From Eledone cirrhosa (Eukaryota), in the NCBI GenBank assembly GCA_964016885.1, contig OZ024748.1:56420001-56484000 (forward strand): 64,000 bases of DNA, written 5' to 3'. The notes under the pieces were generated by a model. The model ran no database searches, was not told the origin of the DNA, and was given only the letters and a program-made list of their open reading frames with translations. Below, piece by piece: positions 1 through 62,628 of the stretch. The first letter of the stretch is position 1; every line of letters begins with the position of its first letter. A program made the position numbers and the translations under genes.

Positions 1-853
1 GTCTGTGTGTATGTGTGTTTGTATGTGTGTGTATATGTATGTGTGTATTGAAATTGCTCTAGAAACTCTCGCCGTAGCATTCACTAAAGAAATAGTGTTC
101 TTCGAGGGAAAGGTTCTCTGAAAACCTTCTGATGTCCTGGTGTAAAGAGAGATACACACAACTAAACCATATTATTTACTTCAAGTCACGGCGAGATCTA
201 ATTCAATTTTCAAATTGTGCTCACCGCTAACTAAAAATACTTGTTTTTCTACACCCCGCTCCCATATATATATATATATATATATATATATATGCATTCA
301 ATAGGTAAACTGAAAAGCCAACAGATATAGCAATATAAATACTACACAGTGCAATGAAAATTGCATATCTGAAATATCAAACTAACAGTTCGGATGAAAA
401 CAAATGAAGCATTTCGGACAAGGGATATTACTTTTTTAGGATTAGACATGCATTACAGCTTATTTTTGAGCTTAGTAAAATATACAAACTTATGTCCGAT
501 ATGACCATCAAGAATTTCCCTGTGAGTTATCAACGTATTTATTATTTACACATAAGGCAGTAGAAAATATATTCATTTGCGTTTGCTTATAATAAAAGTC
601 TCCTGCACACATGTGCACTCTGAGTGTGTGTGTGTATGTGAGTGTCTCTGTCTCTGTGAGTGTCCGTCTAAATGTGTGAGTAACTGGGTGAATACGCGTG
701 TGCGCAAGCGCGTTCATGTATATATATATATATATATATATATATATATATATATAGCGGTGGAACACTGGAAGGTAATATCCGTAGTGGTAGAGCACTC
801 AGTCCAAGGGACGAGTTAGGTAGAAGTAGTTACACAACAGTTAGTTCACCATA

Positions 854-893
854 CCGAGAACAAATGTTTCACCTTCGCGGATCTTCAGCTCGG
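854..893 (-). ncRNA. Minimal type I hammerhead ribozyme (island 757-900)
   Basis: Minus strand reads ccgag CTGAAGA tccgcgaaggt GAAAC attt GTT ctcgg. Helix I ccgag/ctcgg is perfect, the core is intact, helix III is 2 bp with a tetraloop, and the triplet is NUH. Confidence 0.75.
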
Positions 894-982
894 GATGTGT
901 ATGGTTATAGGAAGAGGAAGGACATGCGTGTGTGTGTGTGTGTGTAATTGTATGTGTACGTCTGTTGTCAAAAATGAGTCTA

Positions 983-1134
983 CGAGGATAGGCTGAAAAG
1001 CTCTTTGATTGACTTTAAAGGAATGTTAGCCCTGTTAATTGTTGCTTACATTAATTTCAAGTTGAACATTAAACCTCATTTAGAGATTCCATGAGAGTAT
1101 TTTTTAAGCGTAGGAACGTTTCAGCTAACCCTCG
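983..1134. mobile_element. Mariner-derived MITE
   Basis: Imperfect TIRs cgaggataggctgaaa / tttcagctaaccctcg flanked by TA. Matches the TIR next to the mariner transposase remnant at 31.7 kb. Confidence 0.7.
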
Positions 1135-57546: not shown

Positions 57547-57730
57547 GAAAATGTTCAGGACACCGACGGCACAGGTCAAGCCATTTCGACGGTATTTCTG
57601 GACAAAATTCTAAGTATTGTTGTGCCTTATGGTCCACCAGGTTCCTCATCACACTTCTTTCCTTATATATATATTGAGTACTTTGGTACGTTATAGTCCA
57701 TCTGGTTCCTTACCACATTTCCTTCGTTAT
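57547..57730 (+). mobile_element. Family B island (copy 3, deleted, with duplicated tail)
   Basis: The left arm is retained, most of the right arm is missing, and the tail occurs twice separated by TA. Confidence 0.7.
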
Positions 57731-59985
57731 ATATATATATGGTATCTATTTTTGAAGTTCTAGTTAACATTATTTAGTTACCTACCTAGCTATGTGTGCT
57801 TACACACTTGTAAAATTTATCCCCTGTGATTGTTTCATATGTTTATTTATATGTTAATCAATTTCTAGTTGTTATAAAATGCTCGGACCTATTCATTAGA
57901 ATCTTGGAGCTTATTTTACGGGTGATATGGCGCATGCCTTTCTGGCATGACACCCATAATTTTGATTTACATTAAATTCACTTTGATTTATCTTAATTTT
58001 GTATATATATATATATATATATATATATATATATATATCTTTCAATGTATGGTAATGTATATCAAAATATGCATGTATTTATGATATATATGTACGCAAG
58101 TATATATGTATGTATGTATATATGTATCTATGTATATACGCTTGTACATATGTATATTTGTTTCTCTTTCTCTTAATTTCAAGTACATTTTTGAGCGGCC
58201 CCCTACCTGGTGGCAAGGTTGTATAAGAAAGTTATCTTCTCGGCAACTCCATTCAAATTATACTGCTCGATCCGAATCAACCGTAAATTGTTCAAAGACA
58301 CTCAACGGTGTCGAACACGCAAACTTACTATTGCAAAGAAATTATCCTAGGCAGTCAGCCATATATGCATGAATTGTATGCAAAACCTCATACATAGTTA
58401 CATCTCTACTCAGAAACCCACATGATTAGAAAACAATAAAAACACACATTCACTCACACTATATTTATAATCATATTTAAACAAATAAACATACATTGCA
58501 TACATGCGTACACACACACATATATATATATATATATAAATATATATATATATGTTCACGGATAACGAAAGTAACATATATTTATATATTAATACACATA
58601 TGCATGCATGCATATATTCATAAATGTGAAGAAGATTTGTCGATATAATATATACTTTATTTAGGTATATGTCAACGTGAAGTATCTCTGAGCATTCTAC
58701 ATGTTGTCAGCTATAGGTACACAGGAAAAATTCACATATAAGTATGAGACCATATTATGTTGCATAATAATATACACCTACTGCACATATATACACATAC
58801 ATTGATATATATATATATATATATATATATATATATATATAGATATATGTATATATATAGATATATGTATATATATAGATATATAGATATATATGTATAT
58901 ATGTATATATATGAGTCTCTCTCTCTCTCTCTCTCTCTCTCTCTCTCTCTATATATATATATATATATATATATATATATATATATATATGTGTGTGTAT
59001 ATATATATGAGTCTCTATATGTAAACAAATAGATATATGTATATATGTATGTATATATATATAAGTCTATATATGTAAACATATATATATATATTTATAT
59101 ATATATATATATATAAGTCTATATATGTAAACATATATATATATATTTATATATATATATATATATATACATATATTTGTGCTTGCGTGTTTGTGTGAAC
59201 ACATCTATATGCATATATACACAAATACATTCAGAATTCATATCATATATAGTAAAAAAAATATATATATACGCACTCGTATACACAGATTCAAAAGTCT
59301 ATTTCATTTTAAGATTCCAGAAATACTTCAAAAATCTGAGAAGAAATCTTGTTGATTTGAAGTAAACCATTTTATATCTATATATATATTTCTCTATATA
59401 TTTATTTCTATATATTTTCTCTTGATATATCCTATTTTATTCAAATTCATCTTTGCCTCCATCTCTTCTTTTTCTGCTTACTTAACTACTTATTGTAGGA
59501 TTAATTCTACAGTGTTTCAATAACGTGTACTTGATGAAACGTAGTCTACTATATTTGAAAAATACACACACACACACACACATATATATATATATATATA
59601 TATATATATATATATATATATATATATATGAGGCTCAAATATTATAACAATACATGTATGTATGTTTGAATATATGTATGTATCTAGCTACCTCTCTCTC
59701 TCTCTCTCTCTCTCTCTCTCTCTCTCTCTCTCTCTCTCTCTATATATATATATATATATATATATATATATATATATATATATATATATATATATATATA
59801 TATACACATGACCCTCCCAAAGTATAACAATACACACACACATATATATATATATATATATATATATACATTATATATATATATATATATACACACACAC
59901 ATGTATATATATATATATATATACACACACACATGTATATATATATATATATATACACACACACATGTATATATATATATATATA

Positions 59986-60177
59986 GGAACGAGTAGGACC
60001 CTGACGGCTGAGCTCAAGCCGTTTCGACGGCTAATCCTGGACAGAATTAGCCGTCGAAACGGCTTGAGCTCAGCCGTCGGCGCCCTACTCGTTCCTATTA
60101 CCCACTCTACTACCCTAAGTATTGAGTACTTTGGTGCGTTATGGTCCACCTGGTTCCTTACCACATTTCCTTCGTTA
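59986..60177 (+). mobile_element. Family B hairpin island (copy 4)
   Basis: Arms about 59984-60036 / 60043-60098, GAAAC GGCT tgagctc AGCC GTC, then a tail to (TA)n. Confidence 0.82.
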
Positions 60178-62628
60178 TATATATATATATATATATATAT
60201 GTTTATATATATATATATATATATATATATATATATATATATATATATATATATATATATATATATATAGGGTGATTCTGGTGAAGAAAATTGTGTTGGC
60301 GTTGATGTTAATGGGGATGATGGTACAGGTGTTGGAGTTGATAATGATGATGATGATGATGATGATGATGATGATGACGGTGCTGTGGCTGATGTTGAAG
60401 ATGATGGTGATATTGGTGTTGATCGTGGTGATGATGGTCGTGCTGATGATGATGACGCTGTTGGTGAAGATAACGAACCATATATGTCCAGGTATCTGCT
60501 CATATTGATGATGGTGATAATGGCAGTTGAGACGACGACAATGACTGCAGCCATGATGGTGTTATTGCGAATGATGTTGAAAAGGGAGATGGCGATGTTG
60601 TTGTTGATGAATATAACCATAATGATGACGATGCTTATGGCGACGACGGGGATGATAAACACGTTACTGATGACGGTTATGATGAAGTTGTCTATTGGTT
60701 TATTTTATTTTTAATCTCTTTCTCACTTGGTTCTATGGAAATGTTAATATTTCAAAAAACGTTATTTTCTTTCACATTGATATAGTATATAGTATTGTTG
60801 TTGTTGTTATTATTGTTGTTGAGATGTTGTGGATGATGGTGTGGATGATGGTGTGGTTTCAGTGACATTAGTGGCAGCAATGGGGAGGGTTAGGCTCTGT
60901 TTGTCGTATAATTCCAGCGTTACTTTGAAACATTTCATTGCTTTGTGTATTACATACATGGTCATATACATAATACATACATATATATATATATATATAC
61001 ATGTATAAATACATACATACATATATGTATACATGCAGACAGATATTCATAAACAAACGGGCATACGCGCGCGCACTCACCTATATATATATATATATAT
61101 ATATATATATATATATATATATATATATATATATATATATATACATATATATATATATATAGCTAACAAGAGAGAGAGATTGAAATACGTGTATACATGA
61201 GAGTAATATAATAATTTCTTTATCAAATATGTATCTAAATACATACAAATAATCATACATGGTACATACGCAATCATATAATCACTCTTATTCACAAAAA
61301 CGCACTACTATTTATACCCACAAACAGAAGCACATGCGCATATATAAATATAGAATTGTTAACTATTCCTGTAGATAGATAAATAATAAATATATATACA
61401 CACTTATATGCATACATTCGTGCGTATTTTTATATCTACATGGCCATGTATCTCTCTCTCTCTCTATATATATATATACGCATATATATACGCATATATA
61501 TATATATATATATATATATATATATATATTTTCTTTCATACCTTCACACTTACATACATATATACATACATGCATTAATACGTTTATACATTACAGTGAA
61601 CCAATATTTACTTGCGTAGACAAACAACTAATGAACATTTCCTTACATTTAAATACATACTTCAAAAAGCCAGAAATTTATAGTTACATGTTTAGAAGCG
61701 TGTGGATGTATTTGTGTTTATGTATTCAGTTATGCATGTACTAAAAAACAAAAACGTTTGAATGGTGAATTTGTTATTTATTTACTGAGATGGAAGCTAG
61801 AATGATAGTACTTTCACTGTAAACTTACTTCTGATTCGATAAAAGTCAACTAAAACTGAATTTAATACGAGTAAACAAAGCAAATAGAAAAACAAAATAT
61901 TTTGATCGAATTACGATTATACTTTAACTCTTTGATGTTACACTCTCTTTTCATTCGATGCATACGCAAACACACACACACACCTATATATATATATATA
62001 TATATATATATATATATATATATATATATAGGCAAGTACGTGCGTCACTTCCTGGGCCTATATGGAGAGTAGGTTTCTACGTATCTTCCTATCGATCTGT
62101 CTATCCACTCTGTATACGTGTATATATATATATATATATATATATATATATATATATAGAGAGAGAGAGAGAGAGAGAGAGAGAGAGAGAGAGATAGAGA
62201 GAGAGATTCTTGAATATGTATCCAACCTCCCTGTGTACATGTTACTTTCAAACTTTAGCTGAATGAGCACTCAGTACGTGGGAGTAGAATTAAGGAAACA
62301 ATTTCCGAAGAGAAGCTGATAGTTACTGTGTAGTTTCAGCTCAAGTCATTTCTCGTCTAAAATAGAAAAATTAATTCTGGGTTTAATTATATCTCATTAC
62401 GTCCGAAATATAACCACCCAGAAGTCAACATTTGTCCAAGATTCGGCCATGATATAATATACATTTTCGACATGATGTTAGTAAGTCGATTTGTCTGTCG
62501 ATATTTCTCTCCACAAAGTTTAGGTTGTGTAACTATGGTGTTGGCCTGAAACGTTCATTGGTTCACGCTACCTATGAATAAGTGAGGCTAGAACTATGAA
62601 ATGTTGCATGCATTATTTACAACTCTTA

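Follow-up and report, generated by a model that had tools for sequence, protein, structure and literature searches.

Known systems and the locus compared

Tails, inverted pseudo-long terminal repeats (pLTRs) and hammerhead ribozymes of Penelope-like elements (PLEs), as well as the Hydra clade of these elements, have been described before (PMC3846280, PMC4209133, bioRxiv 10.64898/2026.07.22.740005, PMC7229834; these and the other papers cited below are drawn on in part). The protein of the Poseidon PLE begins reverse transcription within its RNA, from two positions between which the tail lies (Frangieh et al. 2024, PMC11167929). Hydra-clade elements are marked by a GIY-YIG endonuclease at the C terminus, the motifs RW[K/R] and DKT, a CxCX5C linker, canonical hammerheads and (TA)n insertions (Craig et al. 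2021, PMC8557442), and a general length below 3 kb is stated for them as a tendency (PMC8557442). Here, we analyzed a 64-kb stretch of the 3.0-Gb genome of Eledone cirrhosa (assembly GCA_964016885.1, contig OZ024748.1, positions 56420001-56484000), referred to below as the window, together with relatives of its repeats. We found that Hydra PLE copies stop a few bases short of one of two twin hairpins; the hairpin is probably bound as RNA and thereby sets where the reverse transcriptase (RT) primes internally.

The tail of Penelope and Poseidon (PMC11167929; Arkhipova et al. 2013, PMC3846280) and that of the elements studied here have in common an optional 3' extension on one inverted pLTR, two 3' ends and AT-rich targets. 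In the former, the tail of 30-40 bp runs into the open reading frame (ORF), the RT start sites lie inside an AC-rich stem loop, and the portions of these sources drawn on name no conserved determinant. In the Hydra elements, by contrast, the tail of about 60-140 nt lies in the 5' untranslated region (UTR), each end is placed outside and 5' of its own clade-wide hairpin, and there is short target homology at the junction. The Hydra clade of Craig et al. (PMC8557442) shares its motifs, hammerheads and (TA)n targets with the elements described here, and the published consensi hold the hairpin; the words "hairpin" and "stem-loop" occur nowhere in the main text of that paper, and the portions of it drawn on do not mention twin hairpins. 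The twin hairpin, like its relation to both ends, appears to be new, since no description was found in the literature searched (most subscription journals and the Repbase reports lie outside it) nor in Rfam; the initial annotation of the window likewise knew of none.

A bulged hairpin kept by compensatory changes

The material comprised the window, an 854-kb sample (the window, 100 kb of neighbouring sequence and 690 kb of scattered stretches) and pattern matches across the genome; L and a number, e.g., L318, label an examined locus. The motif is a bulged hairpin of 22-30 nt, RCUC-[Y..R inner stem]-UN-GAGY-(RCUY). Its outer stem, RCTC/GAGY, had been noticed in the initial annotation as a conserved stem with differing loops downstream of the ribozyme, and all seven strings quoted there are found where it placed them. 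The stem itself is real beyond chance, as indicated by covariation and by the enrichment over background that had been named as a test: a hammerhead core followed at 60-110 nt by the box has 1236 matches in the genome, compared to 40 with a permuted box. The supposed loop, however, is an inner stem plus a 3' bulge of 1-2 nt that begins with U, and two of the quoted stems were wrong. At 62266, the stem was misregistered, the true 5' arm lying 4-5 nt further upstream and being mutated, as judged from relatives; at 49550, relatives share the 3' box but not the quoted GTGTTCA arm. G-C versions of the outer stem exist (window 2252-2301), and the spacing from 5' arm to box ranges from about 8 to more than 60 nt.

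Covariation was assessed by our own pair counts. Among 94 boxes picked without demanding a 5' arm, the arm is present in 72, versus 21 of 94 in a control stretch further upstream. The variable outer pair of the 72 armed boxes is A-T in 49, G-C in 17, G-T in 5 and A-C in 1; the excess of G-U over A-C (5 to 1) favours the sense strand as the folding strand. For 31 hand-picked representatives (25 first hairpins and 6 hairpins from ORF-bearing copies), we counted 93 inner pairs compared to 39.9 +/- 5.9 in 5000 shuffles, although the representatives, like the metagenome loci considered below, are related and partly redundant, so that shuffle figures are not to be taken as probabilities. The first inner pair of the representatives is T-A (16), C-G (12), G-C (1) or G-T (1), a purine precedes the bulge in 28 of 30 paired representatives, and the bulge nearly always begins with U. 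Folding is predicted to be of modest energy, -1 to -14 kcal/mol, and the structure of minimum energy is sometimes without the bulge; therefore, the structure rests on covariation, not on stability. The pairing is kept through compensatory changes, on the sense strand. A Hydra family at L070:5500-6300 (minus strand) has two clean hairpins with a TTAA flank replacing RCTY, from which it follows that the 3' flank is not essential.

The pattern of arm, box and TA tract has 85,739 forward-strand matches in the genome versus 775 for a comparable reversed control (reverse-strand counts are inflated by overlapping listings). In the 854-kb sample, a TA tract lies 20-90 nt 3' of 64 of the 87 motif matches, and six control motifs have such a tract downstream in 0/10, 0/30, 2/19, 0/19, 0/63 and 2/26 cases. 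By BLAST at 75% identity over 50 nt, the motif-bearing tails form 17 clusters that have no link to one another. Many hammerhead families of the genome are without the motif, among the matches listed. A loose two-box pattern is dominated, genome-wide, by two satellites. We also observed a satellite of 58-bp units, each with a family B-like hairpin and box, extending over at least 6 kb and partly inverted (G000:C1:14234974-14248489, L230-L249), and a tandem repeat of about 600 bp in which a GAGT-type box accompanies degenerate hammerhead cores and which resembles a retrozyme-like satellite (L174:4900-8200, G000:C1:82.134-82.138 Mb).

Twin hairpins and the two 3' ends

The elements have the layout hammerhead - hairpin 1 - about 40-70 nt - hairpin 2 - ATG, with both hairpins in the 5' UTR. 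For example, in L318-L324 the order is hammerhead, hairpin 1, 66 nt, hairpin 2, 18 nt, ATG, an ORF of 737 amino acids (aa), a UTR of 1.3 kb, hammerhead and end. These seven full-length elements have either the tailed end (L318, L320, L323) or the tail-less end (L319, L321, L322, L324), as predicted. Solo end-repeats stop 6-10 nt before hairpin 1 if they are tail-less, or before hairpin 2 if they are tailed; given these two stop points, the PLE "tail" is the stretch between both sites.

We mapped the ends of 321 TA-ended copies from 13 families, with an unselected subsample of 126. The 3' end lies at most 30 nt before hairpin 1 in 133 copies, at the tail end in 160, inside the hairpin in 22, between these positions in 4 and further upstream in 2; the corresponding numbers for the unselected sample are 53, 58, 12, 3 and 0. 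Ends are two-peaked in 12 of the 13 families. The tail-less mode falls at -6 to -10 in nine of the 12 families that have tail-less copies, regardless of hairpin length or ribozyme distance, and the tailed end falls at about +52 to +128 by family. The initial annotation had placed the stem typically 40-70 nt before the TA tract; the distance from box to tract is about 28 to 71 nt by family, and it is instead the distance from a 3' end to the next hairpin, the one that lies 3' of it, that is nearly fixed. A finer mapping of tail-less junctions placed 142 of 296 ends at -57 to -76, apparently through matches to AT-rich or inverted parts of the references, while in 125 of the other 154 the TA tract begins at -10 to -5; this mapping was contaminated, and the count of 321 copies is used instead.

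The tandem element L059 has a second hairpin 6 nt past the tailed end, which predicted a hairpin 2 in other families. In family B, 33 of 69 read-through matches run on, over the same 6 nt, into a second GCTC arm (a hand count of the listing), and a full hairpin 2 with the start of a Hydra ORF was found at eight of the 12 family B loci that were read. The two-hairpin pattern has 243 matches in the genome and none in the reversed control. In 94 of 121 tailed solo copies, the match to the read-through references extends to exactly 3 nt before hairpin 2; on this reference set the two-hairpin pattern itself imposed the TAT spacing. The last letters common to tailed copies and references are TAT, which also match the target. 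A UAU that matches the (TA)n target is found at each junction, and it lies 6-8 nt before most hairpins.

Elements of other organisms

An alignment of 90 proteins fetched 78 metagenome loci, some of them near-duplicates; 48 have near-complete ORF matches, and 46 of these have at least 90 nt of 5' UTR. The motif is present in 41 of the 46 UTRs, and 26 have two or more, typically near -105 and -42. In base-shuffled controls the mean is 1.6 and the maximum 6, and the opposite strand gives 13. In the 65 metagenome hairpins the first inner pair is C-G (47) or T-A (18) only, though C-A and T-G were allowed; the bulge is TT in 46, TC in 14 and TA in 5, its U being demanded by the search pattern. TAT starts at -8 to -6 in 50 of the 65. 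Among 29 pLTR alignments from these loci, 12 stop at the contig end, two run on and 15 are informative; ten of the 15 informative junctions lie 0-6 nt before a hairpin. The proteins of these elements are 32-38% identical to the protein of the window family.

The hairpin is also visible by eye in published coral, sea cucumber and copepod Hydra consensi (PMC8557442 supplement). In that source, it is clear in Hydra-2_Amil and Hydra-2_Ajap and present in two copies in Hydra-1_Ajap; Hydra-1_Crog has two variant hairpins, the second 6 nt past the start of the consensus, and the Hydra-1_Amil consensus has neither tail nor 5' end. The Naiad_Ptep and Chlamys-9_cRei consensi have GCTC...GAGC-ACTG-like stems near the 5' start with no clear U bulge in the published sequences, which may reflect chance or deeper homology.

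Elements that carry the hairpin

For seven families (A, B, D, G2, J, O and the L185 family) a linked ORF was found, and all of them are, on the motifs of their proteins, Hydra-clade PLEs; contrary to what had been supposed, the families are hence not unrelated. Families D, B, J and G2 directly follow endonuclease ORF ends of one type: D in L126, L094, L139 and L175, J in L053, L062 and L082, and B, contiguous with the endonuclease, in L022, L026, L077 and L180. In families A, B, O and the L185 family, the sequence continues into ORFs of the same Hydra type, in B by read-through into hairpin 2 and the ORF in L251-L257 and L260. Families C, E, H, I, K and several singletons have no linked ORF.

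The ORFs were assigned to the Hydra clade because RW[K/R], DKT and CxCX5C are present. Families A, B and O have RxRWR and DKT; W38 is found in 66 of 69 aligned rows, and D118-K119-T120 in 74, 73 and 67 of 74 rows. CxCX5C is present in the L319 protein and in five of six Hydra-type endonuclease fragments, and a CCHH motif was not seen, by eye, in the Hydra-type ORFs. A canonical hammerhead in the pLTR, predicted from sequence, and insertion into (TA)n were both seen. The hammerhead-to-hammerhead distance of L318, about 3.8 kb owing to its 1.3-kb 3' UTR, exceeds the length tendency of the clade. The single 737-aa ORF of L318/L319 comprises an RT and, at the C terminus, a GIY-YIG endonuclease, the latter recognized by eye from its motifs and its likeness to published Hydra alignment rows; Pfam gave no match on the five Hydra-type fragments among ten proteins scanned. 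The ORF protein has 125 full-length relatives at E <= 1e-20. Argonauta is the sole named source of close relatives in the protein search, and a sequence search of the PDB returned no relative.

The predicted structure of the ORF protein is confident (predicted local distance difference test score, 91.6), and its fold is nearest to that of TERT, from residue 1 (Z 17.1, root-mean-square deviation 3.9, 303 aligned residues). The first residues of the model align to human TERT from residue 454, which we take to be inside the RNA-binding domain, and RxRWR lies on the helix of residues 18-45.

Two other owners were considered and rejected. For a Neptune-like owner, the motif is absent from the 2.5 kb that follow the ORF of an abundant 784-aa family, also in the tandem L170, which reads through the pLTR into the next 5' end; for a Nematis-like owner, the motif occurs only beyond an intervening TA tract, hence in other insertions. 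The hairpin is found in Hydra-clade PLEs and not in the Neptune-like or Nematis-like elements checked. The 784-aa Neptune-like family (window 48200-48630; L140-L173) is young and very abundant, with at least 150 copies at 99% identity; a pLTR scan found no canonical hammerhead in it, and it has tailed and tail-less ends without the motif. A third PLE type, presumably Nematis-like (L050:2574-3000, L128, L044), has a C-terminal endonuclease and a hammerhead; its tail, of about 60 nt, is free of the motif.

Sites in the window

The hairpins, hammerheads and partner repeats recognized in the window are as follows.

792..816, minus strand: hairpin 1 and box of family D (4-bp inner stem, 1-nt bulge), in a tailed solo pLTR of a Hydra-clade PLE
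859..888, minus strand: minimal type I hammerhead upstream of the family D hairpin, from the core scan
1855..1903, minus strand: hammerhead of the inverted tail-less family A partner; the copy ends about 23 nt before the hairpin position
1999..2047, plus strand: type I hammerhead of family A, from the core scan
2107..2130, plus strand: hairpin 1 and box of family A1 (inner stem, UU bulge), from sequence and pair count
2252..2301, minus strand: G-C hairpin 1 with a long inner arm, family J, absent from the initial annotation
about 4120-4240: inverted partner of the family A2 copy; ends 7 nt before the hairpin position
4311..4334, plus strand: hairpin 1 and box of family A2, a near-match to hairpin 1 of the intact 737-aa Hydra elements L318-L324
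20000..20027, minus strand: hairpin 1 of family B with mutated 5' arm; its inverted partner, at 20063-20178, stops 8 nt short of the hairpin position
22878..22900, minus strand: hairpin 1 and box of family C
23125-23163, plus strand: hammerhead of the inverted family C partner, which ends about 6 nt before the hairpin position
45223..45250, minus strand: hairpin 1 and box of family B
48886..48939, plus strand: family O hairpin, box short by one base, with a hammerhead core from 48753; read-through copies of family O have hairpin 2 and a Hydra ORF
49547..49569, minus strand: 3' box of a further family, with degenerate 5' arm
57672..57727, plus strand: 5'-truncated family B tail beginning inside the hairpin
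60104..60131, plus strand: hairpin 1 and box of family B; the tail extends to 60175, and its inverted partner, from 59985 onward, stops 8 nt short of the hairpin position
62265..62290, minus strand: decayed hairpin 1 of family I, with the true, mutated 5' arm at 62287-62290, a 3-bp inner stem and a 2-nt bulge

The pairs at 4310, 22879 and 60104 have the optional 3' extension on one of two inverted pLTRs. The claim that a hammerhead lies upstream of each stem is borne out in part: a type I core in the same orientation precedes the stems at 794 and 2106, the cores at 4310, 22879 and 60104 are partial because of inversion or truncation (relatives show full cores), the core at 62266 is decayed, and none was found upstream of the site at 49550. 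A search of the window with Rfam 15 gave no match at the gathering score, and the window hammerheads were missed as well, so that this result means only that no curated model exists here; by E-value, microsatellite noise alone appeared among the matches listed.

Several further features were observed. The family around 49500-49640 (minus strand) is abundant (576 candidates), starts after a (GA)n tract and varies greatly in its 3' halves, with no hammerhead recognized. Family B hammerheads (L180, about 9270-9370, plus strand; window 60035-60085) appear to have a U3-A8 core variant, and other copies are changed there; such a variant was reported for Schistosoma PLE hammerheads (PMC4209133). Two copies of a motif-free hammerhead family lie at 3750-3914 and 44849-45012, and a decayed Hydra-type endonuclease fragment at 6280-6579 (plus strand). 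TA microsatellites are abundant in the window, and short repeats are interspersed. A SINE-like repeat (SINE, short interspersed element) of about 190 bp has about 15 copies in the window, including 5840-6030, 10167-10350, 10740-10955, 24190-24392, 29806-30340, 36174-36400, 41878-42076, 53844-54076 and others; we take it to resemble the octopus SINE.

Proposed mechanism and alternatives

Covariation, conservation across the clade and the fixed position relative to the 3' ends support the suggestion of a shared cis element in the pLTR tail, one that the protein of the element probably recognizes. The genomic ends are consistent with two RT start sites bounding the tail. In the mechanism that we propose, the RT-endonuclease protein would bind RCUC/UN/GAGY through its N-terminal domain and nick a (TA)n tract; the freed AT end would pair with the UAU located a few bases to the 5' side of the stem, and the RNA would be copied from there. 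The Poseidon protein, with its two internal starts (PMC11167929), is the precedent for such priming. Two outcomes are then expected: (i) a start at hairpin 1 would give a tail-less copy without a hairpin; (ii) a start at hairpin 2 would give a tailed copy that retains hairpin 1. The signal, being 3' of the start, would not be copied from its own site, and only tandem, read-through or circular templates would regenerate it. This would explain both the need for a pseudo-LTR and the pile-up of solo end-repeats.

In LINEs (long interspersed elements) and their SINEs, the RNA bears a small stem-loop close to its 3' end, which probably brings in RT both in cis and in trans. The LINE stem-loop lies on the upstream side of the start, and every insertion receives a copy of it, whereas the Hydra hairpin is downstream, duplicated and lost from tail-less copies; contrary to a LINE-type rule, 135 of the 321 TA-ended copies stop before the hairpin. 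In telomerase, a template stretch pairs with the 3' end of the primer at a fixed distance from a protein-bound stem, and such stems stop copying. The Hydra elements would resemble telomerase in the TERT-like protein and the primer-pairing stretch and differ from it in that the stem is proposed to start copying rather than to stop it.

A further likeness is to the arginine sandwich motif of the trans-activation response (TAR) element of human immunodeficiency virus (HIV) and of 7SK, which in TAR involves A22, U23, G26, A27-U38 and G28 (Pham et al. 2018, PMC6189040). The Hydra hairpin has the same succession of purine, bulged U, N, G, A and G paired with C-U-C, with the loop on the opposite side. 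The likeness is one of sequence and secondary structure only, and two published Hydra variants alter the A-U pair, so that it may be used as a lead only. A more specific version of the mechanism, which we put forward tentatively and consider rather doubtful, treats the TAR-like twin hairpin as a ruler: the arginine-rich RxRW[K/R] helix of the telomerase-like RNA-binding domain would grip the U bulge, the nicked (TA)n primer would anneal, as in telomerase, to the UAU a short way upstream, and the two hairpins together with tandem or circular RNA made by the hammerhead would sustain the element.

It should be noted that a number of observations weigh against positioned internal priming. The genomic ends fit internal priming and a cut at the same place alike, and RT binding is putative. 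The Poseidon start site was reported as non-homologous to the cut DNA, unlike the proposed UAU match (PMC11167929). Of the mapped ends, the 22 inside the hairpin are mostly from family J, whose loop has its own TA run; family C ends are split between -7 and -17; families G2 and H have too few copies, and K is without any tail-less copy. The family A partner in the window itself, ending at about -23, falls outside the 6-10 nt rule. The strict motif is missing from five of the 46 metagenome UTRs, and five of the 15 informative metagenome junctions lie elsewhere (-12, -27, -65, -86 and +32). Hydra-1_Obim has a degenerate hairpin (by eye, in the published consensus), the L047/L067 family has imperfect versions only, and L070 has a different 3' flank. 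The redundancy of the hairpin samples and the spacing imposed on the read-through set, described above, belong here as well.

The main alternative is that the hairpin positions a cut, the GIY-YIG endonuclease or another nuclease binding it in RNA or in plus-strand DNA and cleaving the TAT upstream, so that both ends are set. The same end geometry would be expected, the junction TAT resembles the AT-rich target of the endonuclease itself, Craig et al. attribute the tail to endonuclease resolution of an intermediate (PMC8557442), and the D. virilis tail is reportedly required for endonuclease recognition (cited in PMC11167929). However, the sole reconstituted PLE made both ends by internal RT starts, and its main product was unchanged when the RNA 3' end was extended (PMC11167929). 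Also, the 5 to 1 excess of G-T over A-C in the outer pair makes first-strand complementary DNA unlikely as the folding strand. We consider the cut unlikely.

Alternatively, the hairpins might serve translation or cis preference by binding the nascent protein or a host factor, with the ends adjoining them because AU-rich single strands prime easily on TA. Hairpin 2 is indeed about 20-70 nt before the ATG, priming through short TA homology needs no ruler, and AU-rich flanks are common. Nevertheless, the UTRs are AU-rich throughout, yet the ends cluster within a few bases of the hairpins in families without alignable flanks, and the TAT peak is sharp at -8 to -6, which makes this explanation improbable. 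That the near-palindromic GAGYRCTY box of the pLTR acts as double-stranded DNA, i.e., as a promoter or as the site of a transcription factor, is more improbable still: promoters do reside in PLE pLTRs (PMC8557442), and the box is near-palindromic and conserved in sequence, but compensatory outer and inner pairs, the conserved unpaired U and the variable spacing from arm to box point to a folded single strand, and since pairing persists while the sequence changes, the promoter option of the initial annotation is disfavoured. Passive inheritance without stem-specific conservation, in families that are plainly homologous, has hardly any probability, since one clade does hold all the ORF-linked families but the tails form 17 unlinked clusters, and motif and pairing persist in 41 of 46 metagenome UTRs although the proteins are 32-38% identical.

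Implications

How PLE RNA is recognized, and why tailed and tail-less ends coexist, were previously open questions; the reconstituted system gave two internal starts and no determinant. A motif of 22-30 nt, kept in mollusc, coral, echinoderm and crustacean elements, predicts both ends within a few bases. If the ruler version of positioned priming is true, the PLE tail, the pseudo-LTR and the abundance of solo end-repeats would all be accounted for, and a portable 25-nt tag would program the start of a TERT-related RT on any RNA. The hairpin is a marker with which to annotate Hydra elements and their solo end-repeats, of which this genome has on the order of 100,000 copies, and it provides a point of comparison for the way in which telomerase, to which PLE reverse transcriptases are most closely related, recognizes RNA.

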